64,000 bases of DNA from an uncultured Clostridia bacterium (GTDB taxonomy: Bacteria; Bacillota; Clostridia; Christensenellales; Borkfalkiaceae), in assembly GCA_945638575.1 (NCBI GenBank), contig CALZDP010000004.1:8485-72484 (forward strand), given 5' to 3'. Of this stretch, positions 9,746 to 61,933 are shown one piece after another. Below the pieces are notes generated by a model. That model did no database searches. It was not told the DNA's origin and saw only the letters and a list, made by a program, of their open reading frames with translations. A program made the translations under genes and the position numbers. Positions within the stretch are counted from its first letter, which is position 1, and each line of letters opens with the position of its first letter.

Positions 9746-9769
9746 AAAAGTCAGCCTATAAGACCGTTA
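9746..9769 (+). repeat. 24-nt motif copy (AAAAGTCAGCCTATAAGACCGTTA), intergenic; its TTA is the stop codon of the LOG gene
   Basis: Read directly; one mismatch to the core CCTATAAGCCCGTTA. Confidence 0.9.
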
Positions 9770-10306
9770 TCTGTTAGTTTCAAGATATTTTATAATGTCA
9801 AACGGGTTGTCTGAGATATAAAATAAACTTTCGTATTCCTTTATAAATCCTTTGTCCTTTCCGTCCTTTATAAGCGCCGAAAGATTATCGAAAAACCCTT
9901 CTACGTTGTAAACGGCAATGGGTTTACTATGCCTTTTTAACTGCTTTGTCGCGGTAACGCCGAAAAACTCGTCGTAAGTACCGATTCCGCCGGGAACCAC
10001 AATAAAGCCGTCAGATATTTCTTCCATAATCTGCTTTCTTTCGTACATAGTATTGCAGGAAAGAATTTGACACCCGTCAAACAAAACCTTTACTTCCCCT
10101 TCCTTAAAAAAGTTCGGAGCAACGCCGATAATTTTTCCGTTGTTTTCGGTCATACCCTGCGCCGCGCTTCCCATAAGTCCCGTACAACCGCCGCCGAAAA
10201 CCAATTCGTGTCCGGATTTTGCAAGCAATTTTGCTAATTTATGTACCGCGGTTTTATAAACGTCGGCGATTTCGTCCGACGCCGAACCGTAAAGACAAAT
10301 CTTCAT
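9767..10306 (-). CDS. LOG family protein (TIGR00730, cytokinin riboside 5'-monophosphate phosphoribohydrolase-like)
   Basis: GGGCTGLMG and PGGIGTYDEF motifs; 179 aa. Confidence 0.85.
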   Translation of the reverse strand: MKICLYGSASDEIADVYKTAVHKLAKLLAKSGHELVFGGGCTGLMGSAAQGMTENNGKIIGVAPNFFKEGEVKVLFDGCQILSCNTMYERKQIMEEISDGFIVVPGGIGTYDEFFGVTATKQLKRHSKPIAVYNVEGFFDNLSALIKDGKDKGFIKEYESLFYISDNPFDIIKYLETNR

Positions 10307-10361
10307 AATTACCTTTTTATATAAATTCTTTTTGCTGTGTCCAAAATCGCTTTGTTACCGC

Positions 10362-10385
10362 AAAAAGCAGGCTATAAGCCCGTTA
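10362..10385 (+). repeat. 24-nt motif copy (AAAAAGCAGGCTATAAGCCCGTTA), intergenic between the SufB/D-like and LOG genes
   Basis: Read directly. Confidence 0.9.
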
Positions 10386-10406
10386 ACTGTGTTTTTTGTT
10401 TTAAAC

Positions 10407-11333
10407 TTATTTTAAAAATCCGTTCACGATTTCTTCTTCCGCCTGCTTTTCGGTAAGCCCTAAAGACATAAGTTTTACAAGTTGTTCGCCTGCGATTTTA
10501 CCGATAGCCGCCTCGTGAATTAAAGTTGCGTCAACGCAGTTTGCGTTGATTCTCGGGATTGCCGAAACGGTGCCGTTATCCATAATTATGGCGTCGCATT
10601 CGGTATGCCCGTTACATTTATTATTGCCGTTTACCAAAGAATTGTAAACTTGATGACTGCTGTCCTTTGCAACCGAACGTGAAATTACGTGTGCGCCGGA
10701 ATTTTCGCCGTTAAGGTCAACGGTAAAGTGCGTTTCCGCAGTCTGTTTGCCGTGAGTCATAATCTTTTCACGAATAATCAGCGTGGCGTCTTTACCCAAT
10801 ACCGCGTTTGTGGTGCGGACGGTGGAGTCAACCCCCTTTATCTGTACGGTTTCCATTTCGAGATAACCGCCTTCGTCGATTTCAACAACGGTTGTAGGAT
10901 TAAGAATTCTTTCGCCGGAGCCGTCCCCTTCGCCGTAATGCTTTTCGACATACTTAACTTTTGCGTTTTTGCCTACGTGGAAGGTGTGTATGCCGTCGTG
11001 CCGTGCGGTATCGCAACCGGGGTTATGAATTCCGCAACCGGCGACTATCAAAACGTCGGCGTTTTCACCAACGTAAAAATCGTTATATACAAGGTCGTTA
11101 AGTCCGCTTTTGGTAATAATTACGGGGATATCCACCCTTTGATTTTTGGTGTTCGGCTTAATAAAAATATCTATGCCCGATTTGTCGGTTTTGGAAACTA
11201 TATCGATATTTTCGGTAGTGCTTCTTCCTTTTAGTCTGCCGTCCTCACGAATGTTATAAGCGCCCGTCGGCACAGATTCTATGTCTGCAATGGTTGACAA
11301 AAGTTGTTTTTCAAGTGCGCTGAATTCTTTCAT
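10407..11333 (-). CDS. SufB/SufD-family Fe-S cluster assembly protein
   Basis: 308 aa with a beta-helix-like repeat region. The C-terminus HEAAIGKIAGEQLVKLMSLGLTEKQAEEEIVNGFL is typical of SufB/D. There is a 4-nt overlap with upstream sufC. Confidence 0.75.
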   Translation of the reverse strand: MKEFSALEKQLLSTIADIESVPTGAYNIREDGRLKGRSTTENIDIVSKTDKSGIDIFIKPNTKNQRVDIPVIITKSGLNDLVYNDFYVGENADVLIVAGCGIHNPGCDTARHDGIHTFHVGKNAKVKYVEKHYGEGDGSGERILNPTTVVEIDEGGYLEMETVQIKGVDSTVRTTNAVLGKDATLIIREKIMTHGKQTAETHFTVDLNGENSGAHVISRSVAKDSSHQVYNSLVNGNNKCNGHTECDAIIMDNGTVSAIPRINANCVDATLIHEAAIGKIAGEQLVKLMSLGLTEKQAEEEIVNGFLK

Positions 11334-12055
11334 GCCTTCACCCCGTTTTCAAGCATTTTGCAGTTTTTTGCCAAAAATAGTTTGTTCATAACCTCTTTCG
11401 GAGCGCCGTCCTCGGTAATTTTGCCGTCGGCTATAACAATTATGCGGTCGGCAATATTAAGTATTCTTTCTTGATGAGAGATAACTATCAAAGAACCGCC
11501 CATTTTATCGCGCAATTTTTCAAAAACTTTTATAAGATTGGTAAAACTCCACAAATCGATGCCCGCTTCCGGTTCGTCGAAAACCGAAAGTTTTGCACCG
11601 CGCGCCATAGCGGTGGCGATTTCTATTCTTTTAAGTTCACCGCCGGACAAACTTGCGTTAACCTCTCTGTTGACATACTCTCTTGCGCACAGTCCGACTT
11701 CGGAAAGATATTCGCAGATTTCGTTCATTTTAAGTTTTCTTTCGCCTGCAAAATTTATAAGGTCGCTTACCGTAATGCCTTTAAACCTTACCGGCTGTTG
11801 AAAGGCAAAACTTATACCTTCTTTAGCCCTTTCGGTTATAGATAATTGGGTAATATCCCGACCTTCGAACATAATTCTGCCCTCGGTGGGTTTAATTATG
11901 CCCATTATAAGTTTGGCAAGGGTAGACTTACCGCCCCCGTTAGGGCCGGTAAGACAGGTAAATTTTTGGTCTATTTCAAAACTTACGTTTTTTATAATTT
12001 CTTTTTCGCCGTCGGCGTTACTTGCAACGTAACTTACGTTTTTAAATTCTAACAT
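11330..12055 (-). CDS. sufC: Fe-S cluster assembly ATPase SufC
   Basis: Walker A GPNGGGKST, signature LSGGELKR, Walker B LSVFDEPEAGID; 241 aa; adjacent to the sufB/D-like gene. Confidence 0.85.
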   Translation of the reverse strand: MLEFKNVSYVASNADGEKEIIKNVSFEIDQKFTCLTGPNGGGKSTLAKLIMGIIKPTEGRIMFEGRDITQLSITERAKEGISFAFQQPVRFKGITVSDLINFAGERKLKMNEICEYLSEVGLCAREYVNREVNASLSGGELKRIEIATAMARGAKLSVFDEPEAGIDLWSFTNLIKVFEKLRDKMGGSLIVISHQERILNIADRIIVIADGKITEDGAPKEVMNKLFLAKNCKMLENGVKA

Positions 12056-12097
12056 ATCGGTTAAACTGTTTTAATAATCTTAGCCCTCTTAGTTACT

Positions 12098-12952: not shown

Positions 12953-12993
12953 ATTGTAAAACCTTGCAAACCAGTGATTAAATTTTTAATAAA

Positions 12994-16186: not shown

Positions 16187-16210
16187 AAAAGTGGGCCTAT
16201 AGGTCGATTA
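16187..16210 (+). repeat. Diverged motif copy (AAAAGTGGGCCTATAGGTCGATTA); its TTA is the stop codon of the CPBP gene
   Basis: Read directly; several substitutions in the 3' half. Confidence 0.65.
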
Positions 16211-16966
16211 ACTTCTGTTTTTTAAAAACAGTCCTTCACGCTTGCCTTCCGACTTCATATAGTTTATAAAGATATATATTATGGAAACGGCGCCGAATAG
16301 GGCTGTTAAAATTATAAAGGTCAAGTCAACCGAACCGCTGCCTAAAACAGGAATTATTTTTCCGCCGAAATTAAAAACAAAATGAATTAAAGCGGTAATA
16401 AATAAATTTTTGGTTTTGATTGCCGTAAATGACAGCATAAGCCCCAATATAAAAGTGTACACCGCTTGCCCAAGCGTTATTAAAAATCCCGCGCCGTACA
16501 GTAGATTTGTAAAATGCCATAATCCGAATACCGCGGAAGATACCAAACAGGTTTTTAGTATCGGAAATTTTTTATCAAATTTTTTAAGTAAAAAATCTAA
16601 AAGTATTCCCCTAAAAAACAATTCTTCGGCAAAAGCGGTTAAAAGACAGGACAGGGTAAAAATCCAAATTAAGTCCGCTCTGTCGATTTTTGCGCTGCCG
16701 AAAATAAGCGAAGTAAAAGGAAAGTTAACTATTGCCGTTACAAATAAAGGCGTCGCCCACAAAAACCCTTTTTTGTTTATAAAGGGAATTTTCATCGAAC
16801 AAAAAACCGCCGCAACGTAAACGGTAATCGCTGACTTTTGCAAAACTTCTTTAACAAGTCTGTCATAAGTTAAGTCGTTAGGAACAATAGTAAAAAGATT
16901 GCAAACAGCAACGACTAAGCAAACCATTATTATGCCTGCGACTAAGTAAAAATTACGTTTTTTCAT
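16208..16966 (-). CDS. CPBP family intramembrane glutamic endopeptidase (CAAX protease-like)
   Basis: Polytopic membrane protein with EELFFRG, FGLWH and HFVFN motifs. Confidence 0.8.
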   Translation of the reverse strand: MKKRNFYLVAGIIMVCLVVAVCNLFTIVPNDLTYDRLVKEVLQKSAITVYVAAVFCSMKIPFINKKGFLWATPLFVTAIVNFPFTSLIFGSAKIDRADLIWIFTLSCLLTAFAEELFFRGILLDFLLKKFDKKFPILKTCLVSSAVFGLWHFTNLLYGAGFLITLGQAVYTFILGLMLSFTAIKTKNLFITALIHFVFNFGGKIIPVLGSGSVDLTFIILTALFGAVSIIYIFINYMKSEGKREGLFLKNRS

Positions 16967-16980
16967 TAAAAAACATCAAT

Positions 16981-17004
16981 TAACGGGCTTATAGCCTTAC
17001 TTTT
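16981..17004 (-). repeat. 24-nt motif copy, reverse orientation (TAACGGGCTTATAGCCTTACTTTT), between the PepF and CPBP genes; overlaps the pepF stop
   Basis: Read directly. Confidence 0.9.
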
Positions 17005-18716: not shown

Positions 18717-18740
18717 AAAAGTGGGGCAATAAGCCCGTTA
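18717..18740 (+). repeat. 24-nt motif copy (AAAAGTGGGGCAATAAGCCCGTTA), between the DUF1667 and PepF genes
   Basis: Read directly; CTATAAG is replaced by CAATAAG. Confidence 0.8.
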
Positions 18741-18749
18741 TTCGGTATT

Positions 18750-19103
18750 TTAGTTTAATTCCGTTTTGGTTGCGATTAAATTTACCCCTTCGTATAAATC
18801 GTTTATAACTATATCCCCCGTATGAACGGGAAGGGTGGGATGAACGCCGTTTATGGTTTCCATAAGAGAAAGCATCATATCACGGGGAATGGGTTTGTCC
18901 GTTTTGACGGGAAGCATTTTACCGCCGACGCATTTAACCGAAGTTGTCAAAACCCTAAGCGGACGAACAACTTCGTTTTCGGCGTAAAGTTTTCCGCGCG
19001 GACAGGTGTTGCCTTTAACGTAAACGGCAACTCCGTTTTCAACGCCGGCTTCTATTTGACAGCCCATAGGACATTCGACACAGGTAAGATTTTTAATTTG
19101 CAT
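18750..19103 (-). CDS. DUF1667 domain protein (small subunit of the flavoprotein trio)
   Basis: 117 aa, N-terminal Cys cluster CVECPMGC. Its position after two FAD oxidoreductase genes fits the conserved three-gene cluster seen in anaerobes. Confidence 0.7.
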   Translation of the reverse strand: MQIKNLTCVECPMGCQIEAGVENGVAVYVKGNTCPRGKLYAENEVVRPLRVLTTSVKCVGGKMLPVKTDKPIPRDMMLSLMETINGVHPTLPVHTGDIVINDLYEGVNLIATKTELN

Positions 19104-19118: not shown

Positions 19119-20363
19119 TTAGACCTCTAATTCCACGGTTACGGGCGATGAAAGATTTTGCACCTTATCCGCGGTTAAAATAAGAGTTTCCATTTCGCCC
19201 GGAACGGCGATTTTCTTTTTTCTTTCCAAAATAACTTCATTACCGGACTTTATACGAATCGTGCAATTTTTGAAGGTATTTTTAACACGGAAGAAAAGTT
19301 TGACGTTGCCGTCTACACCCTTGTTTATCTTTTGCGGTAATACATAACTTATGTTATCCCCTGCTTGGGTATCCAAAAAGTCGTAAACGCCTTCGCCGTT
19401 TAAAACATACTGCGCGCTGTACCGTCCGGCGATTTCCGCTTCTTCGGAAACAAAGTCCACAAGGTCGTGTACCTGCAAAACGTTACCGCAAGCAAAAATT
19501 CCCCTTTCCATAGTTTCGCGTGTTTGGGAAACTACCGCACCGCGCGTTTTCGGCGACAAGGTAATACCGCAAGATTTTGTAAGTTCGTTTTCGGGTATCA
19601 ACCCTACCGAGAAAAGAACCGTATCGCAGGAAAAGTGCCGCTCTGTGCCCGTTATCGGCCTTTTTTGAGCGTCGACCTCGGATATGGTAACGCCTGTAAC
19701 GCGGTCTGTTCCTTCGATTTTAGTAATGGTGTGATTAAGATATAAAGGTATGCCGAAGTCATCCAAACACTGTACGATGTTGCGTTTTAGTCCGCTTGAA
19801 TAAGGCATGATTTCGCATACGGCGTGGACTTTTGCACCCTCTAAGGTCATACGCCTTGCCATTATTAAACCGATGTCGCCGGAACCTAAAATTACGACTT
19901 CCTTACCCGGCATATAGCCTTTAACGTTGACGTATTTTTGCGCCGTACCAGCCGAATAAATACCGGCAGGTCTGGTACCTGCGACGTTCAATGCGCCGCG
20001 GCTTCTTTCCCTGCAGCCCATTGCAAGAATGATTGATTTTGCTTCTATCGTGAAAAATCCGAGTTCGGGATTGACCGCTTTGACGGTCTTATTTTTATCA
20101 AGGGAAATAACGGTGGTTTCAAGGTAATATTTTATTCCCCTTTCACGCACTTTATCGATAAATCTTTCGGCATATTCCGGACCGGAAAGGCTTTCTTTAA
20201 ACCTTGTTAGACCGAAACCGTTATGAATACACTGATTTAAAATTCCGCCGAGTTCCTCTCCGCGTTCCAAAATTACCACGTCTTTTACTCCGCCGTCAAA
20301 AGCCGCTACGGCTGCGGCAAGACCTGCCGGACCGCCGCCGATTATAACAATATCGTGTTTCAT
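19119..20363 (-). CDS. NAD(P)/FAD-dependent pyridine nucleotide-disulfide oxidoreductase
   Basis: Two Rossmann dinucleotide motifs (IIGGGPAGLAAA and VILGSGDIGLIMA); 4-nt overlap with the upstream gene. Confidence 0.8.
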   Translation of the reverse strand: MKHDIVIIGGGPAGLAAAVAAFDGGVKDVVILERGEELGGILNQCIHNGFGLTRFKESLSGPEYAERFIDKVRERGIKYYLETTVISLDKNKTVKAVNPELGFFTIEAKSIILAMGCRERSRGALNVAGTRPAGIYSAGTAQKYVNVKGYMPGKEVVILGSGDIGLIMARRMTLEGAKVHAVCEIMPYSSGLKRNIVQCLDDFGIPLYLNHTITKIEGTDRVTGVTISEVDAQKRPITGTERHFSCDTVLFSVGLIPENELTKSCGITLSPKTRGAVVSQTRETMERGIFACGNVLQVHDLVDFVSEEAEIAGRYSAQYVLNGEGVYDFLDTQAGDNISYVLPQKINKGVDGNVKLFFRVKNTFKNCTIRIKSGNEVILERKKKIAVPGEMETLILTADKVQNLSSPVTVELEV

Positions 20364-21790
20364 TTGCTTACCCCTTGTAAAAGATTTGATTTTTTACCCG
20401 ATTTGGTTACTTCCGTTAAAGGAAGGTTGTTGCATTTTGCTATTATTTCTGCAACGTAAGGTTGACAAAAACCGCCCTGACATCTGCCCATTCCGGCACG
20501 AGTACGGCGTTTTACGCCGTCGACCGTGGTTGCGCGAGGGTTTTCGGTACAAGCGCAAATGATTTCGCCCTCGGTAATCTGCTCGCAACGGCAAATTATT
20601 CTGCCGTAAGTCGGATCTTTTTTGATTATTTGGTTCTTTTCTTCGTCCGTTAAATTTTTGAAAAAGTAATCTGGACGGCGGTAAGGATTGAATTCAACGT
20701 TTTTATTAAGCGGTAAAAGTGCGCCTATAAGCCCGTTAACCACATATTTTGCTATTGCCGGCGCACTTGTAAGACCGGGGGATTCGATACCTGCGCAGTT
20801 TATCAAGCCTTCTACCTTTGGGCTCTTTTCAACGATAAAATCGTGCCTGTCGGAATACGCCCTTATGCCGGCAAAGGAAGTTATCGTGTTATAAAAAGGT
20901 ATGTTTTTACACATCTTTTTTGCCTTTTCGATAACCCAATTTAAGCCTTCCTGCGTAGTTTCGGTGTCGGGTATATCCATTTCTTCGGCGGTAGGACCGA
21001 GCAATATGTTGTTATCTACGGTGGGAAGCACCAAAACACCTTTGCCGAGTTTGGTGGGCGTAAAGAAGAGCGTGCGTGTCACAAAGCCCGCACATTCACG
21101 GTCAAGCAAAATATATTCGCCCTTTCTTGCCCCTATTTTTATGCTGTCATCACCGAAAAATTCGGCAACTTTACCGCTGTAAAGACCTGCGCAGTTGACA
21201 ACAATTTTACCTTGCACCTGTCTGCCGTCGCTTGCGGTTACCGTAAACGCACCTTTTTCTTTTTTGGCGGAAACCGCTTCAAAATCGGTATACAAAACCG
21301 CGCCGTTATCCATGGCGTTGCCGATTAAAGATATGGTAAGTTCATACGGGCAAACAATTCCGCCCGTTTTTGCGTAAAGAGCGCCTACAGCCTCGTCGGA
21401 AAGGTTAGGTTCTAATTCCCTTAACTCTTCGGCGGAAATTATTTCAAGTTCGCCGACGCCGTTTGCCTCTCCGCGTGCTTTCAGGCTTTGCAAGGTGTTT
21501 AAATCTTCATCGGAAAAGGCAACTACCAATGAGCCGTTCTTTTTATATTTTACGCCGAGTTCTTTGCAAATGCCTTCCATCATAAGGTTGCCTTCAACGT
21601 TGAATTTCGCCTTTAAAGTACCTTCCGCGGCGTCGAAGCCTGCGTGTACCACGCCGGAATTTGCACGGCTTGCGCCCATACAGACGTCGCTTTCCTTTTC
21701 TAAAAGGCAAATCTTCAGATCATACTTACTTAACTCGCGAAGAACGCTTGCGCCGATCACTCCGCCGCCGATAACCAAAACATCAAACAT
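20360..21790 (-). CDS. FAD-dependent oxidoreductase, glycerol-3-phosphate dehydrogenase-like with BFD-like [2Fe-2S] domain
   Basis: N-terminal VIGGGVIGAS FAD motif and a C-terminal CRCEQITEGEI...CQGGFC BFD-type cysteine pattern. Confidence 0.8.
   Translation of the reverse strand: MFDVLVIGGGVIGASVLRELSKYDLKICLLEKESDVCMGASRANSGVVHAGFDAAEGTLKAKFNVEGNLMMEGICKELGVKYKKNGSLVVAFSDEDLNTLQSLKARGEANGVGELEIISAEELRELEPNLSDEAVGALYAKTGGIVCPYELTISLIGNAMDNGAVLYTDFEAVSAKKEKGAFTVTASDGRQVQGKIVVNCAGLYSGKVAEFFGDDSIKIGARKGEYILLDRECAGFVTRTLFFTPTKLGKGVLVLPTVDNNILLGPTAEEMDIPDTETTQEGLNWVIEKAKKMCKNIPFYNTITSFAGIRAYSDRHDFIVEKSPKVEGLINCAGIESPGLTSAPAIAKYVVNGLIGALLPLNKNVEFNPYRRPDYFFKNLTDEEKNQIIKKDPTYGRIICRCEQITEGEIICACTENPRATTVDGVKRRTRAGMGRCQGGFCQPYVAEIIAKCNNLPLTEVTKSGKKSNLLQGVSK
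20715..20738 (+). repeat. 24-nt motif copy inside the G3P-dehydrogenase-like CDS (AAAAGTGCGCCTATAAGCCCGTTA), read on the coding strand as ...NGLIGALL...
   Basis: Read directly; the protein shows VVNGLIGALLPLNK. Confidence 0.9.
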
Positions 21791-23594: not shown

Positions 23595-23774
23595 TTTTAA
23601 AAACTCCTTAAATTATATTATCTTTTGTGTTGCCTGTATCGGCAACTGAAATTATTATATCACAATTACTTATACATGCCAACCGCGGTAGATAAATATC
23701 TAAACAAGTCAAATTATTATCTTAAAATTTTCTGTTAACCTGCTTTTTGACTGCATTTTTTAAAAAATTGTCGA

Positions 23775-23798
23775 TAATCGGCTTATAGGCCGACTTTT
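23775..23798 (-). repeat. 24-nt motif copy, reverse orientation (TAATCGGCTTATAGGCCGACTTTT), overlapping the malQ stop codon
   Basis: Read directly; the variant GCCGATTA is shared with the copy at 59898. Confidence 0.85.
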
Positions 23799-25291: not shown

Positions 25292-25315
25292 AAAAGTCAG
25301 CCTATAAGCCTGTTA
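25292..25315 (+). repeat. 24-nt motif copy (AAAAGTCAGCCTATAAGCCTGTTA), between the M18 peptidase gene and malQ
   Basis: Read directly. Confidence 0.9.
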
Positions 25316-25368
25316 TTTGATGTTTTTGAAAGAATCCGATACCTTAAATTTTAGGTATCGGACAACAA

Positions 25369-28322: not shown

Positions 28323-28358
28323 TAACAGGCTTATATAATTTAATTGCGCCTGCTTTTT
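28323..28358 (-). repeat. Interrupted or degenerate motif copy (TAACAGGCTTATA[taatttaatt]GCGCCTGCTTTTT), just upstream of the MATE gene start
   Basis: Both halves are recognisable but separated by about 10 extra nt. Confidence 0.5.
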
Positions 28359-30663: not shown

Positions 30664-30664
30664 G

Positions 30665-45512: not shown

Positions 45513-45710
45513 TGTTTGCCACCTTCGGCGAAAGTTTTAAATAAAAATCCGTCGTTACAGTTCATATGTATTTATGATAGCAAAAAATCAAAATTTTTAC
45601 AAGGCTTTTGGGCAATATTTTGTAATTTAACAGGTTTTTTAATATGTTAAGTTTTATTAAAAATTAGGTGAAAATTTTTTTCTTTTGCGATTTTTAACAA
45701 AATATGTCGT

Positions 45711-45735
45711 TAACGGGCTTATAGCCCTGCTTTTT
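45711..45735 (-). repeat. 24-nt motif copy, reverse orientation (TAACGGGCTTATAGCCCTGCTTTTT), upstream of the V-ATPase operon
   Basis: Read directly. Confidence 0.9.
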
Positions 45736-48020: not shown

Positions 48021-51000
48021 GACTTGCCCCCTTTCGGTTTTAGCGCGATAGCCGTAAAAAACGTTAGCAGCAAAAGGGATAAATCCCCTAAGTTTTTTGT
48101 ACCCAAAGCGCCGTTTGCGGTTTCGTAATTTTGTGTTTTATCGTTATAAAAATCTTCGTAAGCCTTTATATATTGCTCGATAACCGACTTATAGGCGGAT
48201 ATTTTGTTAATTTGGGCATTATCGCCTTCGGTAAAAAAAGCGACAACTTCCTTAATTTTCAACAGATTAGTCATTTTTAAAGACTCTTCTTTTTTAAGTT
48301 CTTCAAGCAAAGCGGAAATTTTATCTACTTTACCTTTTACGTCGACGCAGGCTGTAAAGGTTTTTACCGCTTCGCCCTTATAGTTATCGTCTATAACGGT
48401 TATTTTTACTGAAAATTCCCCCTCCTTATCGGGGTTTGAAACAAGCGTTTCTCCATAATAATATTCTTCTTTAAGTTTAGCGTTATATCCTAAAAGTCGA
48501 GCTATAGGTCGGTTTTTGCCTATTACGATAAACTTTCCGTAATCGGAATCAACATCTATATATTGACCTATGTCCGCCTTATCTACCGTTAAAATAAAGG
48601 CGTTGGAATTTGTAAATTCAAAGTATCTGTCGTCAAGATAAACTTTTACGGTATAACTTCCGGCGTTTACTACCTTATTGTCGTTATCGCCCGTTACGGT
48701 TATATAAAAGCCTTGCGGAGATAGTCCGCCAAGACCGCCGATGTTTTTATTTACGTCAAAAAATTCTATTTGATTTCCGTTGTAAACAAAATCTGTTTTC
48801 ACGTCTTTAAGCCATACCTGTTTTTTGGTAACAAAAAGATTGCATGATTTAGCGGTAACGCAATAATTGGGGTTACAGTCAAAAATGTACAAGCGGTAAT
48901 TGCCTATCATGTCGGGAGCGCCGAAAAACTCTGTGTCGATTTTCAGGTCGTCCTTTTTTGCAAAAAACTCAAGCGACAACTCGTCGCCGTCTAACAGGCT
49001 TCCGCTTGTTACCGTAAAGGAAACCTTTTTTGCGATTTCATTAAAAGTGTCGGTAAATTCCGCATAGACGTCATCAAGTTCAAGGGTTACTTCACGCTTT
49101 GTAATCGTCAAAAGGGAGTGATCGCCGTATTCGTAATCAAAATTTACGGTGAAATTGTCGTTTATTTTTTGGGCGTAAATTTTGTAACTTCCTACTGCGT
49201 TTTGGTTGTCGCAAGTAATTTTAATCACATTTTCAAGACATATGCCGTACGGCAGATCTGTCGACGCAGCCGTTATATTTATATTTTCCCCGTACACCGC
49301 ACTGACGTTTGGAAGGCTTACGGTAATATTAAGCGGCAAAATTTCCGCATTTGCACCGATAAAATCAATGCGGTAGTTTGGATTTGTCGGCGTTGCAAAA
49401 ATTTTATAAACGCCGACCGTGTCGCCTTTTTCACGATATAAATCGACAATCTTTGAAAGTTCGTCAAAGTAGGCAAGGCTTCCTTTGATTACTCGGACGG
49501 TAAGTTCAAAATCTTCGCCGTATTTAGCCGAAACGGGATTTGCCGTAACCGTAATCGGCCTTGGCAATATATCGTATTTTGCGTCTATTACGATAACGTC
49601 ATAATTGTCATTGACACATTCCGCGCTTATTTTATAACTTCCCACCCCTTCGCCTTGTTCGCGAAAGAAAGTCAAAATTTTGCCTATACTGTCAAACTCG
49701 CAAACATAGCCTTTTATTATACTGCAGGAAATCGCCTCGTCAAAATCGCCGTAAAACTTTATCTTATCATCTATTTTGACGGTTATACGGCGCGGTAAAA
49801 CCTTTATTTGTTTGAAGGAATTTATAAAGTAATTCGTGTTTAAACATTCCGCCGAAACAAATTCGTTTACGGTAAATTTAGCATTGCAAACTTCAAGCGG
49901 AATATCGGAAACAAAATTCAAACTTTCCGCCCTATCGCCGTAGTATATGTAATCTTCGACGGCGGTAATGTTTACGGGACAGGGCTTAACGGTAAAGTTT
50001 GCATAAAACTTGCTTTCGTTAATCTCTGCCGTAACAAGATAACTTCCTTTATTTAAAATTTTCGAAACAACACAGCCGTCAAGTGTTACGGTTATATTTA
50101 CGGAAGGGGTAACGGCAGTATTCAAATTGTCGATTGCGGAAACGGTAAAATCCAAACTTTTGCCGTCGTATACCTTTTCGTCTCCGCTTGTAAAACCGAA
50201 ATTAACGGTATATCTTCCGCCCTTTAAAACGGTAAGGGTTGCGGTATTGCCTTCCGCTATAAAATTATCGTTATCGAAAACAGGCGTAACTGTGTAAACG
50301 CCTTCGGTCAAAATTTCGGATAAGTTGCCCGATAGGTCGATTATTGCGCTGTTTTTGTCATTTGAAACCTTGAAATATTTTATGGCGTTATAGTCCGAAA
50401 CGTAATCGAAAGGGATAATATTACATTCGTTTAGATACACGGTTTTATCTTTAATTTTTACGGTTATCTTTCTTTTTGCGATTTCGTAATTTGCATTGGC
50501 AAAAATTACGTCATAAAAAGGGCTGTCGCATTTACCCGTAACAGAATAATTGCCTGCAACGGAATTATCAGTTGCGGTTGTGTAAAGGGTAACGGACGGT
50601 TGGTCGGAAAGTTCTTCGGTAAATCTTCCGGTAAGCGGTTTAATCGCGTCAAGATAAACACCGCTTTTGCTATCGATAATATAGGTAACTTTTTTAGGGT
50701 TGACGTTTGTCAAAACCTTTTCCAAAGTATATGAAACGCCGTTAAAGTTGCCCGTGTATTCCGCCCTAACCGTAATATCGCCCAAACTGTAGCTATAATC
50801 GTAAAGGGTTGCCGTTTGGATGATTTTAGTACCGTCGACAGATAAGGTTACAACCTTTGTCGAAGTATCGCCGTAAGTTACGTTTTGCGCGCAAAAGTCG
50901 ATAACGTAACTAAAATCGCAGTAACCGTCTAATACGGTTTTTATAAAAGATAAATCCTCGGCGTTTCTGTTTTCGGTTAAATTCAGGTACTCGTTATAGA

Positions 51001-52948
51001 CGGAAGTTACCGATTCTTTACTCAAATGTCCGCCTATAAGCCCGTTATAGTTGTTTTTATAGTCGTCAAAACTATTTAGATAAAAATAAACTTTATGGGT
51101 TAAACTATCCAAAATATACCCGTCGCTTGTAAAATCGGCAACGGCAACATAGTCGCTTGTTTTGTTGTAATCGGGGGTAACTTCTATTCTTTCGGTCCGT
51201 CCGCCGTAGAAACTAACGATAGCGAAAAACTTACGCGCAAAACCTTCTTTAATGACGTAATCGTCATCTAATACTATGCTTTTTACAACGCTGTCAAGCA
51301 AAACGTCGCTATCATAAACCACTTCCGCTTTACGGCTGAAATTATCTTTGCCTGCAGTATGGTAAGTTACGCCGTCGGACAAATAAATTTCGGCGGTAAA
51401 TTTACCGTCTTTATTAGTGTAATAATCTTTGCCGTTAAGGTTTACGCACACGTTTTTAACTGCTTCACCTATGTAAAAGGTTACGTCCGAAACATAACCG
51501 CCATCTGTAAAACATAAAAACCTGCCCGTACAAGTTTGGTTGATTTCAATAATATGATTTTTATATTCTGTCGGCAAATCGCCGTAAATAACCTTGTCTA
51601 TGCTAACCGTTTTTAATAAAAACGGGCTTATAGCCCCGCTTTTATAGGTTTTGCCCCTTTCAAGAGCGATAAACCCGTTAAGCGCATAGGCTTTTGCGGA
51701 CGCCGTAAATTCACAAAGATTACCGAATTTTTTAACGGAAAAGCCTTCCGTAACGGTATCCGTTAACAGGGCGGTTTCGGACACGTTTATAAGTCCGTTT
51801 TGCGATTCGGTTTGCACCGTTCCGTAAAAACGTCCGTTAATGTTTAAAGTGCCGTTTACTATCAAACTTCCGCTGCCGCTTAAACCCATTTTTTGTAAAG
51901 TTTGGCTGTCTAAATAGGATACGCCCGAATATTCTCCGCTGTAAAAACCGTCGTAAACGCCAAACGTTCCGTCTACATTTAAACTTGCACCGTCAAAAAC
52001 CTTAAAAGTTGCGCCGGTCATTATTTTAAGTTTTGCGTTTTCGGTTACGTTAAAATTGCCTTCCTTTACGTTGATATCCCAAAAATAAGGAACGGACAGA
52101 AAGCGGTTAAAAGAGGAATAGGTTTTATCAAATACAAAATCCGCGCTTTTTACGCTTACGTTGCCGTAAAAGGATAAATCCGTTTTGCATAGGTTGTCGA
52201 TACCGCATACTTTAGCGTCAAGATTTTGATTTTTGTCATAGGAAATTTCCGCCCTTCCGTCCGTAAGAGCGAACAAACCGTCGCTTGCGATAAAATTTAT
52301 AAATGTTTCGCTCGGCAAAACGCCCAAAAAACGACCGTTTGCGTTTATAGTCCTTTTGATTTTTACGGTGTTTAAATAATATTGATTAAACGGAAGGTTT
52401 CCCCTTTTATAGATATCATCCGCAACTTCACTAAAATAGTCGGGTATAAAAAGCGGTTCGTAAAAGGTTCCGTTTACTGTAATACAGCCTTCGCCGACGA
52501 CTAAAGCATAAACTTCCAAAACGCCGTTCACGGTAATATTGCCGTTACAAACCACAGCGTCGGGCGTAGCGGAAGTCAAATCATCTTTATTGCCGATTAG
52601 CATTTTACCGTCGACGACTAAATTTACATCGCTATTTATTACCAAACCGCAGCAGTCCGCACTTAAAGTTACGCCCTTTGGAACGGTAAGGTCGGAATCG
52701 ATTACTCCGTTTTCTATATAAACGGTTTTACCGACGTCGGCTTTATTTAAAGCCTCGCTTAAAGTATAAACCTTGCCGTCAAGCGTGGCGGTAATTTTTG
52801 AATTACCGTCAAAATTTTTCCTAAGGCCGTCTATAAGCCCGTTAGCGCAATAAATCGGCATGGTTTTTATGATAACCGAAACACCTATAATCAAAAGAAA
52901 AGTCAAAAAGATTTCGGCTATTTTTGAAATTTTTTCTGAAAAATTCAT
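48017..52948 (-). CDS. Giant (1643 aa) cell-surface protein with beta-helix-like N-terminal region and multiple MBG (YGx-type) repeat domains
   Basis: N-terminal signal-anchor. Repeated modules of the form ...KYGE/YGD...GSL...D....L.REKG..VGxYKI......NPNY.I.....A...ILP..ITV (e.g. ITVTANPVSAKYGEDFELTV...GDTVGVYKIFATPTNPNYRIDFIGANAEILPLNITV). C-terminal hydrophobic helix plus basic tail. Confidence 0.8.
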   Translation of the reverse strand: MNFSEKISKIAEIFLTFLLIIGVSVIIKTMPIYCANGLIDGLRKNFDGNSKITATLDGKVYTLSEALNKADVGKTVYIENGVIDSDLTVPKGVTLSADCCGLVINSDVNLVVDGKMLIGNKDDLTSATPDAVVCNGNITVNGVLEVYALVVGEGCITVNGTFYEPLFIPDYFSEVADDIYKRGNLPFNQYYLNTVKIKRTINANGRFLGVLPSETFINFIASDGLFALTDGRAEISYDKNQNLDAKVCGIDNLCKTDLSFYGNVSVKSADFVFDKTYSSFNRFLSVPYFWDINVKEGNFNVTENAKLKIMTGATFKVFDGASLNVDGTFGVYDGFYSGEYSGVSYLDSQTLQKMGLSGSGSLIVNGTLNINGRFYGTVQTESQNGLINVSETALLTDTVTEGFSVKKFGNLCEFTASAKAYALNGFIALERGKTYKSGAISPFLLKTVSIDKVIYGDLPTEYKNHIIEINQTCTGRFLCFTDGGYVSDVTFYIGEAVKNVCVNLNGKDYYTNKDGKFTAEIYLSDGVTYHTAGKDNFSRKAEVVYDSDVLLDSVVKSIVLDDDYVIKEGFARKFFAIVSFYGGRTERIEVTPDYNKTSDYVAVADFTSDGYILDSLTHKVYFYLNSFDDYKNNYNGLIGGHLSKESVTSVYNEYLNLTENRNAEDLSFIKTVLDGYCDFSYVIDFCAQNVTYGDTSTKVVTLSVDGTKIIQTATLYDYSYSLGDITVRAEYTGNFNGVSYTLEKVLTNVNPKKVTYIIDSKSGVYLDAIKPLTGRFTEELSDQPSVTLYTTATDNSVAGNYSVTGKCDSPFYDVIFANANYEIAKRKITVKIKDKTVYLNECNIIPFDYVSDYNAIKYFKVSNDKNSAIIDLSGNLSEILTEGVYTVTPVFDNDNFIAEGNTATLTVLKGGRYTVNFGFTSGDEKVYDGKSLDFTVSAIDNLNTAVTPSVNITVTLDGCVVSKILNKGSYLVTAEINESKFYANFTVKPCPVNITAVEDYIYYGDRAESLNFVSDIPLEVCNAKFTVNEFVSAECLNTNYFINSFKQIKVLPRRITVKIDDKIKFYGDFDEAISCSIIKGYVCEFDSIGKILTFFREQGEGVGSYKISAECVNDNYDVIVIDAKYDILPRPITVTANPVSAKYGEDFELTVRVIKGSLAYFDELSKIVDLYREKGDTVGVYKIFATPTNPNYRIDFIGANAEILPLNITVSLPNVSAVYGENINITAASTDLPYGICLENVIKITCDNQNAVGSYKIYAQKINDNFTVNFDYEYGDHSLLTITKREVTLELDDVYAEFTDTFNEIAKKVSFTVTSGSLLDGDELSLEFFAKKDDLKIDTEFFGAPDMIGNYRLYIFDCNPNYCVTAKSCNLFVTKKQVWLKDVKTDFVYNGNQIEFFDVNKNIGGLGGLSPQGFYITVTGDNDNKVVNAGSYTVKVYLDDRYFEFTNSNAFILTVDKADIGQYIDVDSDYGKFIVIGKNRPIARLLGYNAKLKEEYYYGETLVSNPDKEGEFSVKITVIDDNYKGEAVKTFTACVDVKGKVDKISALLEELKKEESLKMTNLLKIKEVVAFFTEGDNAQINKISAYKSVIEQYIKAYEDFYNDKTQNYETANGALGTKNLGDLSLLLLTFFTAIALKPKGGKS
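51024..51047 (+). repeat. Motif copy inside the giant surface-protein CDS (AAATGTCCGCCTATAAGCCCGTTA), encoding ...YNGLIGGH...
   Basis: Read directly; the protein shows NNYNGLIGGHLSKE. Confidence 0.9.
51618..51643 (-). repeat. Motif copy inside the giant surface-protein CDS (AAAACGGGCTTATAGCCCCGCTTTT), encoding ...KSGAISPFL...
   Basis: Read directly; this uses a different reading frame from the other in-gene copies. Confidence 0.85.
52825..52844 (+). repeat. Partial motif copy inside the giant surface-protein CDS (GGCCGTCTATAAGCCCGTTA), encoding ...ANGLIDG...
   Basis: Read directly. Confidence 0.75.
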
Positions 52949-54715: not shown

Positions 54716-55457
54716 TAACTTCTCCTTTACTTTGAATTAAATCTTTTATTACCTCGGAAGCAATAATAAAACCTGCCACCGGCGGTACGAAAGATATGCT
54801 TGCAGGCACACGCTTATCGCCGAGCGGAGAGATAGGCTCTTCTTCGGAATACACTGTTTTAAGACTTTCTATATTACGTTTACGCAGTTCCCTTCTTATG
54901 ACCTTTGCAAGCGGACAGACTTTGGTTTGATAAATATCCCCTACTTTAAAAGCGGTGGGATTCAACTTGTTTCCCGTACCTAAACAGGCGATAACGGGCT
55001 TATAGGCGGACTTTGAGGCTTCGCACAGTAAAATTTTCGCCGTTACCGTATCCACGCAATCCACTACGTAATCGTAACTTTGAAAATCAAAAAGGCGCAA
55101 GGTTTCCGCCGAAAAATATACGGGGAATTTTTCCACTTCGATATTCGGATTTATGTCCTTAAGCCTGTCGTAAGCAACGTCGGTTTTTAATTTTCCGACG
55201 GTAGAGTTAAGCGCGTAAAGTTGTCGATTTATGTTGGTAACGTCAACTTTGTCTCCGTCGCAGATAACAAGTTTGCCAACCCCTGCGCGGGCAAGGGCTT
55301 CCGCCGTAAAAGACCCGACGCCGCCAAGCCCGAAAAGGGCGACTGTTTTATGAGCGAGCAAAAGACGCTTATCTTTACCTATTAAGTTATCTTCCCTTGA
55401 AAAAATATCAGACAATTTTACCACCGTCGATTTTAAAAGTTTTGTAATCTGCGTCAT
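54708..55457 (-). CDS. tcdA: tRNA threonylcarbamoyladenosine dehydratase (ThiF/MoeB-like E1 fold, TcdA)
   Basis: FSREDNLIGKDKRLLLAHKTVALFGLGGVGS Rossmann motif and DCVD. The real start is probably the GTG/TTG near 55418-55427, not ATG 55457. Confidence 0.8.
   Translation of the reverse strand: MTQITKLLKSTVVKLSDIFSREDNLIGKDKRLLLAHKTVALFGLGGVGSFTAEALARAGVGKLVICDGDKVDVTNINRQLYALNSTVGKLKTDVAYDRLKDINPNIEVEKFPVYFSAETLRLFDFQSYDYVVDCVDTVTAKILLCEASKSAYKPVIACLGTGNKLNPTAFKVGDIYQTKVCPLAKVIRRELRKRNIESLKTVYSEEEPISPLGDKRVPASISFVPPVAGFIIASEVIKDLIQSKGEVNE
54992..55014 (-). repeat. Motif copy inside tcdA (TAACGGGCTTATAGGCGGACTTT), encoding ...KSAYKPVI...
   Basis: Read directly; the protein shows ASKSAYKPVIACLG. 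Confidence 0.9.
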
Positions 55458-59897: not shown

Positions 59898-59921
59898 AAA
59901 AGTCGGCCTATAAGCCGATTA
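59898..59921 (+). repeat. 24-nt motif copy (AAAAGTCGGCCTATAAGCCGATTA), 7 nt after the mnmG stop
   Basis: Read directly. Confidence 0.85.
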
Positions 59922-59965
59922 TCGCTACATTTTTTAATTACAACTTTGTTTAAGACGGAGAAAAC

Positions 59966-60757: not shown

Positions 60758-60780
60758 AATAACGGCAATATTCGGAAAAT

Positions 60781-61119
60781 CTAACGGCGCAATAAAACAC
60801 CCTTCATATACTGTGTGTTATGCGCTTTATATATTGCCGACTTTTCTTCTTCACTGCAACCGATCAGTATCTTAATTTCGGAATCCTTTTTCATTAAATC
60901 CACGGTACAAATAATAGCGTCTATTTGTTTACCGCTACCCACCCACACGTCTATTCCTCCGCCGTCCATCGAGGCTGTGTTTTTTAAATAACCGTAATCG
61001 ACGGGATATATAAAATCCGAAAATTTCGGGTGCGCAGTGCCCTTTGGTCTGTCGATTATTATCTCGGAATTCAACACTAATTCATCTAACGCTTCCCAAA
61101 ATTCTTTATTGCTTTGCAT
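60781..61119 (-). CDS. Small inorganic-pyrophosphatase-like protein
   Basis: 112 aa; the IIIDRPKGTAHPKF..YPVDYGYL..T.S.DGGGIDVWVG pattern resembles short proteins usually annotated as inorganic pyrophosphatase. This assignment is from memory only. Confidence 0.5.
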   Translation of the reverse strand: MQSNKEFWEALDELVLNSEIIIDRPKGTAHPKFSDFIYPVDYGYLKNTASMDGGGIDVWVGSGKQIDAIICTVDLMKKDSEIKILIGCSEEEKSAIYKAHNTQYMKGVLLRR

Positions 61120-61316
61120 TTTAAAATCTCCGTCAAATTATTTCATTGCAACTTCGCCGAGCAAACATTTATTCAAAATAATAAGTTTGGTTTTTATTGT
61201 TCTGTATAATAGCGTTTTTTGGTATAACGCAAGTTGGAAACTCTTCGCTTTTTATTATACCTTTCCATATGATTTTCGGCATTTTTCACCCAATATTTCT
61301 ATAATTAGGTTTTTTA

Positions 61317-61790
61317 TTAAAACAAAATATGACTCTTTTTACAATAGTCAATTACTTCGTTGAACAAAACAGGCGTTGTTTTCGGATAAGTTAAGTTTGT
61401 AGGCAACTTATCAAAAACGGCAATCTCTTTCATCTCGAAACTTGGTAAAGTTGACAAGGCGTGCGCTATTGCAACAAAAACCATTCCGTTTGAATGACGT
61501 TCGCTATTGTAGCCGTAATAATCGCAAACGGGATAAATATCGGCCTCTTTTATTCCGCTTTCTTCAAACAGTTCTCTTTTAGCGGTTTCGAGCGGCGACT
61601 CTTTTTCTTCGATATGTCCGCCTTGCGTTTCCCGCGTGCTGCGAATTTTATGTTTGCTTAAAACAAATTTTCCTTGATAAAAAGTGCAAACAACAACATA
61701 TTTATATGTTTTTAAACTATTTAGCGGATAAACGATACATTGCAATTCTTTTCGTATATCTTCCCTTTCTTTATCATCATAAGTATTCAT
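61317..61790 (-). CDS. NUDIX hydrolase
   Basis: Nudix box GGHIEEKESPLETAKRELFEESGI (GX5EX7REUXEEXGU). Confidence 0.85.
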   Translation of the reverse strand: MNTYDDKEREDIRKELQCIVYPLNSLKTYKYVVVCTFYQGKFVLSKHKIRSTRETQGGHIEEKESPLETAKRELFEESGIKEADIYPVCDYYGYNSERHSNGMVFVAIAHALSTLPSFEMKEIAVFDKLPTNLTYPKTTPVLFNEVIDYCKKSHILF

Positions 61791-61840
61791 ATTTAAAACC
61801 CGATAAATTACTGCTAAACTTATTATATCAAAACCAAGTC

Positions 61841-61877
61841 AAAAAGGCAAGGATTGAATTTACCTTGCCTTTATTTG
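61841..61877 (-). terminator. Rho-independent terminator after psuG
   Basis: Minus strand AAAGGCAAGG-(11 nt)-CCTTGCCTTTTT. It lies downstream of the 24-nt motif copy that overlaps the psuG stop. Confidence 0.75.
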
Positions 61878-61909
61878 TTACAACGTAATATAAAACGGCA
61901 ATTTTTTAA

Positions 61910-61933
61910 AAAAGTCCGCCTATAAGCCCGTTA
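61910..61933 (+). repeat. 24-nt motif copy (AAAAGTCCGCCTATAAGCCCGTTA); its TTA is the psuG stop codon
   Basis: Read directly; identical to the copy at 34827. Confidence 0.95.

Follow-up and report, generated by a model that had tools for sequence, protein, structure and literature searches.

What is the short word that recurs throughout a 64-kb stretch of DNA from an uncultured Clostridia bacterium (here termed the window), how did its copies arise, and what might keep them in place? Inspection of the letters had led to the original prediction of an asymmetric motif, AAAAGT followed by three variable nucleotides and a 15-mer core, repeated far beyond chance and with no described counterpart. 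When up to 3 mismatches are allowed, the core CCTATAAGCCCGTTA is found 23 times on the two strands of the window, six times as a perfect 15-mer, as compared with 2.3 ± 1.5 (maximum 7) in 100 dinucleotide shuffles. A scan with a 38-column weight matrix and a threshold of at least 12 bits returned 24 copies from the window and none from shuffled sequence, where the top score was -2 bits. A copy is present at every predicted coordinate, including 16187 and those of the two short copies within coding sequence, 44804 and 48181, and the matrix contributed further ones at 19631, 24878 and 48492. Supposed relics near 14196, 36197 and 43180 proved indistinguishable from background in the window; the orthologous spacer of the first carries a good copy in the stretch L116. 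A search of the literature found no description of the motif and no paper containing its sequence.

The AAAAGT flank and the core had been recognised correctly, but the conserved unit is longer than predicted, its 3' half, ending in [T/a]CG-n4-TTTT, having been missed. The full unit, AAAAGT-ssG-[G/C]CTATAAGCCCGTTA-[T/a]CG-nnnn-TTTT, extends from position -9 to position +26, a length of 36 bp, and is asymmetric, in keeping with the earlier remark that it is not a consistent palindrome, although the W/S pattern of the core is symmetric. It holds approximately 40 bits of information, as against the approximately 12 bits that would suffice for one site per ~2 kb. Long-range helical phasing of the flanks and a clade-wide distribution had also escaped the first reading.

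Many copies in the window are intergenic or lie at or near stop codons. These include 9746..9781 (+ strand, 36.3 bits; orthologous copy in L063 and L116), 10362..10397 (+, 40.3 bits; in a SLOG/LOG-like/SufBD spacer that is likewise occupied in L063 and L116), 16187..16222 (+, 27.2 bits; a TATAGG/TCGA variant with 4 core mismatches), 16969..17004 (-, 40.3 bits; its A-tract overlapped by the stop codon of ORF 17003-18697), 18717..18752 (+, 38.6 bits; of the GGGGC 5'-arm class, orthologous copy in L104 and L116) and 25292..25327 (+, 41.0 bits; orthologous in L104 and L116). The tcggC-CTATAA-Gccga variant at 23763..23798 (-, 45.8 bits) overlaps the stop codon of ORF 23797-25284 and has a counterpart in L116, with none at this spot in L104. 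Further along are 30654..30689 (-, 34.4 bits), followed by a separate GC hairpin and T-run; a perfect-core copy at 31779..31814 (-, 46.0 bits) in a convergent-gene spacer, adjoining a separate hairpin terminator; 45699..45734 (-, 48.4 bits), upstream of the V-ATPase operon in the spacer between divergent genes; a tcggC/Gccga variant at 59898..59933 (+, 45.0 bits), 8 bp past the mnmG stop codon; and a perfect-core copy at 61910..61945 (+, 47.7 bits), in which TTA 61931-61933 serves as stop codon for a psuG-like ORF of the - strand, 61931-62851. The TTA at 9767-9769 within the copy 9746..9781 is likewise a stop codon (TAA, - strand), that of ORF 9767-10306. An interrupted or degenerate copy at 28323..28346 (-, below 12 bits) has the core TATATAAGCCTGTTA without the AAAAGT flank, and its orthologous spacer in L116 holds a good copy.

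Other copies lie within genes: a weaker one at 19631..19666 (+, 27.1 bits) in the Pyr_redox_2 ORF 19119-20363, a perfect-core one at 20715..20750 (+, 48.7 bits) on the opposite strand of the FAD-dependent (GlpA-like) oxidoreductase ORF 20360-21790, a marginal one at 24878..24913 (-, 15.2 bits) in a 4-alpha-glucanotransferase ORF, and a perfect-core one at 34827..34862 (+, 51.3 bits) that makes up the final 12 codons of the MatE ORF 33437-34864. A tcgaC-CTATAA-Gtcga variant at 42365..42400 (-, 22.0 bits; V-ATPase E-like ORF) and the copy at 44791..44826 (-, 23.5 bits; V-ATPase subunit I ORF) are both conserved in L025. The ORF of a 1643-aa surface protein (48017-52948) holds five to six copies, among them 48169..48204 (-, 32.0 bits), the weaker 48492..48527 (+, 21.3 bits), the perfect-core 51024..51059 (+, 41.4 bits), 51608..51643 (-, 28.7 bits) and, near its 5' end, 52821..52856 (+, 26.1 bits); all of these except 48492..48527 keep their relative positions in the L121 orthologue. 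A degenerate inverted partner of 51608..51643 is seen at 51657-51680. A perfect-core copy at 54980..55015 (-, 46.0 bits) lies on the same strand as the TcdA/ThiF-family ORF 54708-55457.

The location of the typical copy directly past a stop codon, with the core flanked by an A-tract and a T-tract, might suggest that the motif acts in transcribed RNA, whether as a terminator, as a stabiliser of the 3' UTR or as a small structured RNA. We regard this as scarcely credible: both orientations are about equally frequent, as was predicted, with counts relative to transcription of 60 and 44 (co-directional spacers) and of 46 and 44 (ORFs); the copies show neither a stable fold nor covariation, and no Rfam family matches. 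Moreover, separate canonical hairpin terminators stand beside or after some copies, which bears out the original distinction between the two. The motif is shown to be a 36-bp asymmetric double-stranded DNA signal that is read as a duplex, neither as a hairpin nor as RNA.

The motif is not peculiar to the window. It occurs at 0.3-0.65 copies/kb, or about every 2-3 kb, in at least 23 species-level metagenome-assembled genomes (MAGs) of uncultured gut Christensenellales, the exact 23-nt pattern being found in more than 108 stretches from about 23 of them. Four stretches that had not been selected for the motif (the window, L116, L120 and L121) carry 0.38-0.65 copies/kb. The outgroup loci L114 and L115 have 0 copies in 43 kb. 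In 2.9 million viral contigs the 23-nt pattern has 0 matches, and an 18-nt pattern has a single match, flankless and chance-like.

Comparison between species reveals how copies arise. Most stand at orthologous positions in species that are only 70-80% identical (for the window copies at 9.7-28 kb, about 7/8 have a counterpart in L116), and between species 68-80% identical no part of the neighbourhood is as well conserved as the motif, synonymous sites included. In two coding copies, ancestral residues have been replaced with no change in length. The copy at 20715..20750 encodes VNGLIGALL and is kept in L104, L079 and L116; the outgroup has VETLVGGML at this place, without an indel; the GlpA-like homologues are uniformly 474-476 aa long, and VNGLIG in the motif clade differs from the outgroup VETLVG by about 11 nucleotide changes. 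The copy at 54980..55015 encodes KSAYKPVI and is conserved in L018, L109, L063 and L121; a graded series leads from xxxxxTPIIS through KALNKPII, KSLNKSII and KSSNKPVI to KSAYKPVI, with DNA intermediates in L119 and L120 that represent partial proto-sites, again without an indel. These data show that copies are not inserted but arise in place by point substitution from partial proto-sites, even at the cost of amino-acid changes, and then stay at the same chromosomal positions while their surroundings diverge by 20-30%.

Such an origin bears on one of the three roles originally proposed, a short REP-like mobile unit, considered here as any REP/REPIN- or MITE-like element whose spread depends on a transposase (RAYT-type or other) acting on a single-stranded hairpin. 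The high copy number and information content, an intergenic density about 11-fold that of coding sequence, the linked arm variants tcggC...Gccga in a minority of copies and the 8-bp outer inverted arms AAAAGTGG...CCACTTTT in one lineage would suit it. It is nonetheless very improbable, because Watson-Crick covariation is absent in every inner and outer stem register (248 copies), 36% of 250 copies lie within ORFs, where residues are altered and length is not, the coding copies examined are substitutions rather than ends of larger insertions, and positions are orthologous across species. The folds of window copies are also no more stable than those of shuffles (z between -1.1 and +1.4), inverted pairs are absent from the spacing analysis, viral contigs lack the motif, and a Pfam scan of ~40 window ORFs found no transposase, as predicted. 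The other two proposals survive, namely that the motif is a signal of the uptake type or that an abundant DNA-binding protein recognises it.

Placement is informative for both. In coding copies each orientation keeps to a single reading frame: those on the same strand as the ORF encode KSAYKPVI, and those on the opposite strand encode (V/D)NGLIG(G/A)L(L/F). Copies follow stop codons at a median distance of 14.5 bp, and convergent spacers are 3 times denser per kb than divergent ones. Copies are densest where constraint is weakest, as illustrated by the 1643-aa ORF and a 9.7-kb Opp operon with none. No pairs occur less than 110 bp apart, where about 6 such intervals were expected, a pattern that fits a second tag bringing less benefit to a DNA fragment than the first; close pairs are in direct orientation only, and the spacing CV in the window is 0.69.

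A further property lies outside the conserved word. A/T content around copies has a periodicity of 11.6 bp, symmetric about position 8.5-8.75, the middle of the core, and reaching about ±125-140 bp from this dyad, with an amplitude of 0.09-0.10 within ±85 bp and ~0.05 at 85-140 bp; control amplitudes are merely 0.005-0.03. Intergenic copies (n=158) show it, as do coding ones (n=87), and it recurs in each of two species subsets that do not overlap. The 36-bp core is thus shown to sit on the dyad of ~250 bp of helically phased A/T tracts, a long-range phasing that is new here. Phased flanks are a signature of DNA bending or wrapping, and such an arrangement implies that whatever reads the motif either bends or wraps the DNA itself or depends on DNA that is already bent.

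This evidence also sustains the main rival explanation, an architectural or topological site, for instance a strong gyrase site analogous to BIME, which we consider possible but doubtful. A sequence-specific bending protein or DNA gyrase would bind the core, the ~250 bp would wrap or form the apical loop of a plectoneme, and the sites would relax or organise supercoils at gene ends, as a functional analogue of the E. coli BIME-2/REP strong gyrase sites maintained by selection and not by transposition. Periodicity centred exactly on the core in coding and intergenic copies, the symmetric W/S pattern, the position past stop codons, the convergent bias, the exclusion zone and the direct close pairs all agree with it. 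BIME-2 REPs are strong gyrase sites independent of transcription, a published gyrase motif likewise has a 36-bp centre with symmetric periodic flanks (PMC6379681), and in a second study three gyrases favour GC at periodic positions up to 120 bp from the cleavage site, the more so when the DNA is positively supercoiled (PMC12324340). However, 40 asymmetric bits far exceed the need of gyrase indirect readout or of any known many-site nucleoid protein, the correlation of the W/S pattern with the consensus for E. coli gyrase is only weak (r = 0.15, with its maximum at zero shift), and the period is 11.6 bp, not 10.75 bp. The clustering of copies in one weakly constrained ORF and their lack in the Opp operon look like tolerance-limited accumulation and not need-based placement, and the creation of sites inside enzymes by 3-4 residue changes would require sizeable positive selection per site.

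We therefore favour, with a probability of roughly 0.38, a self-DNA tag of the USS/DUS type that would be kept by biased transfer and recombination, since the molecular drive of DNA uptake sequences is, to our knowledge, the sole process that yields hundreds of high-information, non-mobile coding and non-coding copies clade-wide. A sequence-specific receptor of a gene-transfer route, most simply competence-type DNA uptake, would favour DNA from relatives that carries the motif and bends easily, and homologous recombination would swap resident alleles for better-matching ones, so that the word would accumulate wherever it is tolerated, just after stop codons first and in weakly constrained coding regions next. 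Helically phased A/T tracts also adjoin the core of the Haemophilus USS. Several points speak against this reading. We know of no sequence-specific DNA uptake in the phylum, Bacillota. The nearly invariant core of at least 24 bp exceeds any uptake signal known to us, and we know of no described uptake mechanism that predicts symmetric 11.6-bp phasing to ±125-140 bp, which more naturally fits a wrapped chromosomal nucleoprotein complex. The convergent excess would also follow from a topology-related function, and inverted pairs, common for DUS, are missing. A prepilin-motif scan found none in ~1 Mb of sampled DNA, too small a sample to be informative.

The same drive-type signatures would be left by another biased-transmission tag, either a pac-like small-terminase site of a domesticated GTA or transducing phage or a recombination/repair hotspot, through which motif-carrying DNA would be packaged or converted more often and copies would spread. 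Small terminases recognise asymmetric ~20-bp sites, possibly inside genes, and bend or wrap DNA, which would account for the phasing. Yet GTA or terminase genes were not seen in the window, the motif is absent from the viral contigs, and we know of no GTA that packages DNA from dispersed specific sites; this explanation is improbable.

Among known systems, other phased-tract sites share A/T tracts phased over at least 100 bp around a central site but are single or degenerate, without a conserved 36-bp word. Cyanobacterial HIP1 (GCGATCGC) is also an abundant word that propagates by substitution, lies within genes at conserved positions and occurs in genomes with strong ~11-bp periodicity; unlike the motif, it is palindromic, only 8 bp long and much poorer in information, and we know of no report of phased flanks. 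E. coli REP/BIME elements (BIME-2 strong gyrase sites and BIME-1 with an IHF site) resemble the motif as dispersed conserved units of ~35 bp, enriched past stop codons and between convergent genes and associated with DNA-wrapping or -bending proteins, and the published gyrase motif shares the 36-bp centre and periodic symmetric flanks; REPs, however, are imperfectly palindromic, lie strictly outside genes, usually come in pairs and are spread by RAYT transposases, none of which holds for the motif. Pasteurellaceae USS (a 9-bp core with phased A/T flanks, ~30 bp) and Neisseriaceae DUS (12 bp, with dialects) differ from the motif, which lies in a host phylum without known uptake specificity and has a core 2-3 times longer, symmetric phasing over ~250 bp, no inverted pairs and an approximately 3-fold lower density. 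In common with them, the motif has copies in either orientation that number hundreds to thousands in a genome, in intergenic DNA (gene 3' ends especially) and in preferred frames of ORFs, originating by point mutation and not insertion, with family-level conservation in one clade next to lineages that lack it, information far in excess of what site frequency needs and, as in USS, helically phased A/T tracts.

The core CCTATAAGCCCGTTA matches the 64-kb window 23 times with up to three mismatches (six of these matches are perfect), against 2.3 ± 1.5 matches and a maximum of seven in dinucleotide shuffles. A weight matrix of 38 columns, derived from the full set of copies, places 24 sites in the window at or above the cut-off of 12 bits, where the best site of the shuffled window scores -2 bits. 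The over-representation claimed in the original prediction is therefore real, and each position named there as a copy does contain one, including the TATAGG/TCGA variant at 16187; the "relics" proposed at 14196, 36197 and 43180 are, in the window, no different from background. Forward and reverse copies are about equally numerous, although most genes and the GC skew have one sign. Density in unbiased loci, the window included, is 0.38-0.65 copies per kb, and copies in the window are spaced 2.6 kb apart on average (CV 0.69).

With position 0 set at the first base of CCTATAAG, 248 non-redundant copies define a conserved unit from -9 to +26, AAAAGT-ssG-[G/C]CTATAAGCCCGTTA-[T/a]CG-nnnn-TTTT(T). 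The alignment bears out the AAAAGT flank described previously but not the proposed extent of about 24 nt, since a conserved 3' extension is also present. Copies from unbiased loci carry about 40 bits of summed information, where some 12 bits suffice for one site per ~2 kb on either strand. The motif had been described as no consistent palindrome, and this is confirmed: single-strand folding of the window copies is no better than that of shuffles (z from -1.1 to +1.4), and the 248 copies show no Watson-Crick covariation above shuffles in two inner and three outer stem registers, on which ground hairpin, cruciform and RNA models were rejected. There are two main forms of the 5' arm, nGGGC, which can pair with GCCC, and the commonest, TCCGCC, which is unable to pair with GCCCG; compensatory-looking variants (tcggC/Gccga and tcgaC/Gtcga) are a small minority. 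Given no fold above shuffles and no covariation, the unit is read as duplex DNA, and it is at this level that the signal acts. The unit of the CALVUR lineage varies less, and its two ends make up an 8-bp inverted repeat, AAAAGTGG-GGCTATAAGCCCGTTATCG-CCACTTTT, with a predicted fold of -10.2 kcal/mol (copies in L036, L040 and L058, and at 532, 2427 and 15327 of L116, a comparison stretch chosen through its proteins). This repeat is not general, and the window's species is without it.

That the copies are transcribed RNA elements or terminators is extremely improbable, given their unbiased orientation, the lack of a fold and the absence of any Rfam match in the window at gathering thresholds; an ARAGORN tRNA search of the window also returned nothing. 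As an intrinsic terminator, the unit would have a best stem of 4-5 bp lying 10 nt from the T-run, in both orientations and with copies inside ORFs. Three kinds of protein-binding site were likewise tried and set aside. A promoter reading, with TATAAG as the -10 element, fails for want of a correctly spaced -35, and because copies point both ways and some conserved ones lie within ORFs. The DnaA-box likeness of TTATCGCCAC is a lineage-specific trait, and the window shows no enrichment of DnaA-box-like 9-mers. The IHF consensus is WATCAANNNNTTR; positions 13-25 of the motif read TATCG-n5-TT, and 65% of copies have G where the consensus conserves A at its position 5. The recF-like (-), dnaA (+) and mnmG (+) genes are adjacent at 55408-59890, a locus unlike a classical oriC because it contains neither a DnaA-box cluster nor a sign change in GC skew.

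The genes of the window are ordinary housekeeping ones (a V-type ATPase operon, a glpA-like operon, dnaA-mnmG, a recF-like gene, tcdA, psuG and an Opp transporter), and Logan metagenome contigs match its sequence at 99.8-99.95% identity. The original prediction had called for a search of relatives. When GTDB representatives (one genome per species) were scanned with the exact pattern AAAGTNNNSCTATAAGCCCGTTA, more than 108 stretches were recovered, and the same consensus was present in at least about 23 species-level MAGs among the matches listed, with minor variants of positions 7-11 (GTCGA, GCCGA, GTCGG, GCCTG) common to all these species. Among the same matches, the source MAGs are labelled Christensenellaceae, Christensenella sp. 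or uncultured Clostridia, with a few implausible labels. The latter include motif-bearing MAGs syntenic with the window that were deposited as Parasutterella excrementihominis or Acidiphilium sp. (CAVJMJ, CAZNKA, CAYVKZ and CAYZWD; stretches L015, L021, L025, L041, L049 and L082, among others), and these are probably mislabelled bins.

The motif is shared within this clade and missing from the neighbouring loci sampled. MAGs with the motif include CALVUR, CAYNLN and CATZIC, and JAZMWC and JAZNDR are relatives without it. Loci of about 21 kb each, fetched through proteins and not through the motif, contain 14 copies in L116 (0.65 per kb), 12 in each of L120 and L121 (0.58 per kb), five weak, divergent copies in L119, which is syntenic across dnaA-mnmG-recF-tcdA (0.24 per kb), and none in the outgroup loci L114 and L115 (0 per kb), whose GlpA-like proteins are 67-70% identical to that of the window. 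An alternative over-represented word was not seen in the outgroup loci, 21 kb each being too little to judge. A separate dialect in L119 was considered and is not established, the repeated 12-mers there being one local tandem array: in the mnmG-dnaA spacer (L119 7308-7440) a motif copy is followed by four tandem 30-nt units, AAGCCCTTAACTTGATTAACGGGCTTTTTA, which derive from the motif's 3' half. The dnaA-mnmG gap of the window is just 18 bp and has no such array. Accessory or defence stretches (L120 1-4700 and L119 12000-20700, with AbiH, an SLFN-like helicase, a YD-shell toxin and many small ORFs without a Pfam hit) are free of copies, and adjoining core genes have them. In the IMG/VR viral collection a 23-nt pattern found no match and an 18-nt pattern found one, without flanks.

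Copies are 64% intergenic and 36% within ORFs (250 copies), in DNA that is ~87% coding. Convergent spacers hold 2.15 copies per kb, co-directional spacers 1.5 and divergent spacers 0.67; in co-directional spacers the median distance from a stop codon to the downstream copy is 14.5 bp, and a quarter of the copies overlap the stop codon itself. A TTA or TAA of the motif serves as the stop codon of five window genes, the former (motif positions 12-14) for genes on the opposite strand and the latter, overlapping the A-tract, for genes on the same strand. Stops supplied in this manner lie at 9767-9769, 61931-61933, 17003-17005 and 23797-23799, and the final 12 codons of a MatE ORF are motif-encoded (34827-34862). 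As originally noted, orientation shows no preference with respect to transcription, the split being 60 to 44 among copies of co-directional spacers and 46 to 44 among those in ORFs. Copies in ORFs keep to a single frame per orientation: same-strand copies encode KSAYKPVI and opposite-strand copies (V/D)NGLIG(G/A)L(L/F). No interval shorter than 110 bp occurs among 141, against about six expected, and all seven pairs less than 400 bp apart are direct repeats. The sole inverted arrangement seen, at 51608-51680, has a good copy (-) facing a degenerate copy (+) 46 bp away, within a 1643-aa ORF (48017-52948) that has faint MBG-domain hits and contains 5-6 motif copies. The Opp-type ABC transporter operon (1-9700) has no copy in 9.7 kb; its GC content is slightly higher (0.43 versus 0.40), and the operon may be a more recent acquisition or be under stronger constraint.

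At syntenic loci of other species the motif stands at the same positions, and no other part of the alignment is as well conserved, its synonymous sites sharing in this. Copy 20724 (20715-20750, +) is conserved in L104, L079 and L116, copy 54992 (54980-55015, -) in L018, L109, L063 and L121, copies 42377 and 44803 in L025, copies 18726 and 25301 in L104, and copy 9755 in L063. L116 has counterparts for about seven of the eight window copies between 9.7 and 28 kb, and four copies of the 1643-aa ORF recur at the same relative positions in its L121 orthologue (12590-17503). There is some turnover of positions, copy 23775, for example, being missing in L104.

Comparison of two coding copies with at least 20 homologues each revealed no indel and the replacement of ancestral residues. 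GlpA-like homologues are uniformly 474-476 aa long, and the motif clade has YVVNGLIG(G/A)LLPL where relatives at 67-70% identity have YVVETLVGGMLPL, a difference of about 11 nucleotide changes and no indels. At the TcdA site, distant homologues read xxxxxTPIIS, nearer ones KALNKPII, KSLNKSII or KSSNKPVI, and the motif clade KSAYKPVI, with partial motifs as intermediates in the DNA of L120 and L119. The lack of indels and the DNA intermediates therefore show stepwise growth of copies from proto-sites by substitution, overriding protein sequence, a mode of origin that excludes mobile-element insertion and demands a directional force. A MITE or transposon end was rejected on the constant length of orthologous loci, which differ by substitutions, and on the lack of terminal inverted repeats in the window's species. 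The original suggestion of a short REP-like mobile unit fares poorly for similar reasons: a REP/REPIN or MITE element is highly unlikely in view of the missing palindrome, the copies in ORFs, the conserved positions without indels, and the lack of inverted pairs and of viral-contig matches. No Y1 (RAYT) transposase was found among the ~40 window ORFs scanned.

The A/T content of the DNA surrounding the copies rises and falls in phase with the motif. Fitting a symmetric cosine to the flanks puts the period at 11.6 bp and the centre at position 8.5-8.75, with R² = 0.57 as far as ±125 bp; two disjoint species subsets yield identical values. The amplitude, 0.09-0.10 within ±85 bp, drops to about 0.05 at 85-140 bp and to noise past 145 bp; control anchors consisting of AAAAGT only (n = 1515) or of A4-N27-T4 (n = 944) give 0.005-0.03. 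Phasing is seen in copies between genes (n = 158) and in coding ones (n = 87), the centre of phasing is the midpoint of the 36-bp core (-9 to +26), and the A/T blocks of the core (AAAA, TATAA, TTAT, TTTT) carry on the flank pattern. Phased flanks centred on the core thus indicate that the motif is the dyad of ~250 bp of DNA that is curved or that wraps round a symmetric surface.

Such phasing and a dyad-centred 36-bp core fit a wrapped complex, as do the exclusion zone around copies and their bias towards convergent spacers and the 3' ends of genes, and an architectural or topological chromosomal site is a serious, if doubtful, alternative. The E. coli gyrase motif consists of a 36-bp centre between flanks that are symmetric and periodic, and strong gyrase sites include the BIME-2 REPs (PMC6379681); for three gyrases, GC is preferred periodically within 120 bp of the point of cleavage (PMC12324340). 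Were the dyad a gyrase cleavage centre, the cut would fall at TATAA^GCCC^G. However, the W/S pattern of the motif is a weak match to the published E. coli consensus (r = 0.15), the period of its flanks is 11.6 bp instead of 10.75 bp, and indirect readout does not yield 40 bits in an asymmetric sequence.

As to the motif's reader and function, we infer, tentatively, a USS/DUS-type tag kept by biased transfer and recombination. The fuller proposal is more tentative still, with a probability of roughly 0.35: in the motif, Bacillota would have their first sequence-specific signal for DNA uptake (or for gene transfer of another kind), in the form of a 36-bp tag for self-recognition. Its reader would need ~250 bp of pre-bent DNA, and the tag would drive its own accumulation across the clade, even rewriting protein sequences. 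An uptake tag would account for the threefold excess of information, for the stepwise substitutional origin inside genes with fixed frames, for accumulation where constraint is weak (5-6 copies in the surface-protein ORF, none in the Opp operon), and for the clade limits and the absence from viral contigs. The over-regular spacing would follow because a fragment that already has one tag gains less from another. To our knowledge, uptake sequences are the only known class to combine these properties. A prepilin-signature scan of about 1 Mb of genome fragments found none, in a sample too small to be informative. Some other drive mechanism, for example a pac-like site, is quite unlikely.

We know of no comparable element described for Bacillota; the motif sequence was not found in the literature searched, and literature on Christensenellaceae competence, pili or repeats yielded nothing relevant. 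Should the motif be a transfer tag, DNA exchange in a major uncultured group of gut commensals would favour kin, which would bear on the cohesion of these heritable, health-associated gut Christensenellales lineages and offer a handle for genetic manipulation through addition of the tag to donor DNA. If its role is architectural or topological, no other sequence-defined element that positions a wrapped bacterial nucleoprotein complex would be as clear, and each genome would offer hundreds of phased sites suited to Topo-seq or ChIP. On either reading, the 36-mer is a sharp taxonomic and binning marker for these MAGs that points to probably mislabelled bins, and a striking DNA-level signal that overrides protein sequence.

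Set beside known systems, the motif departs from REP and BIME elements, which are strictly extragenic and commonly form inverted pairs, whereas more than a third of its copies (36%) lie in ORFs and its close pairs are direct (7/7). The Haemophilus USS has phased A/T tracts, but symmetric phasing over 250 bp, as seen here, is not predicted by the USS/DUS reading. The motif's mode of evolution is nearest to that of uptake sequences, and its physical signature to that of BIMEs and strong gyrase sites.
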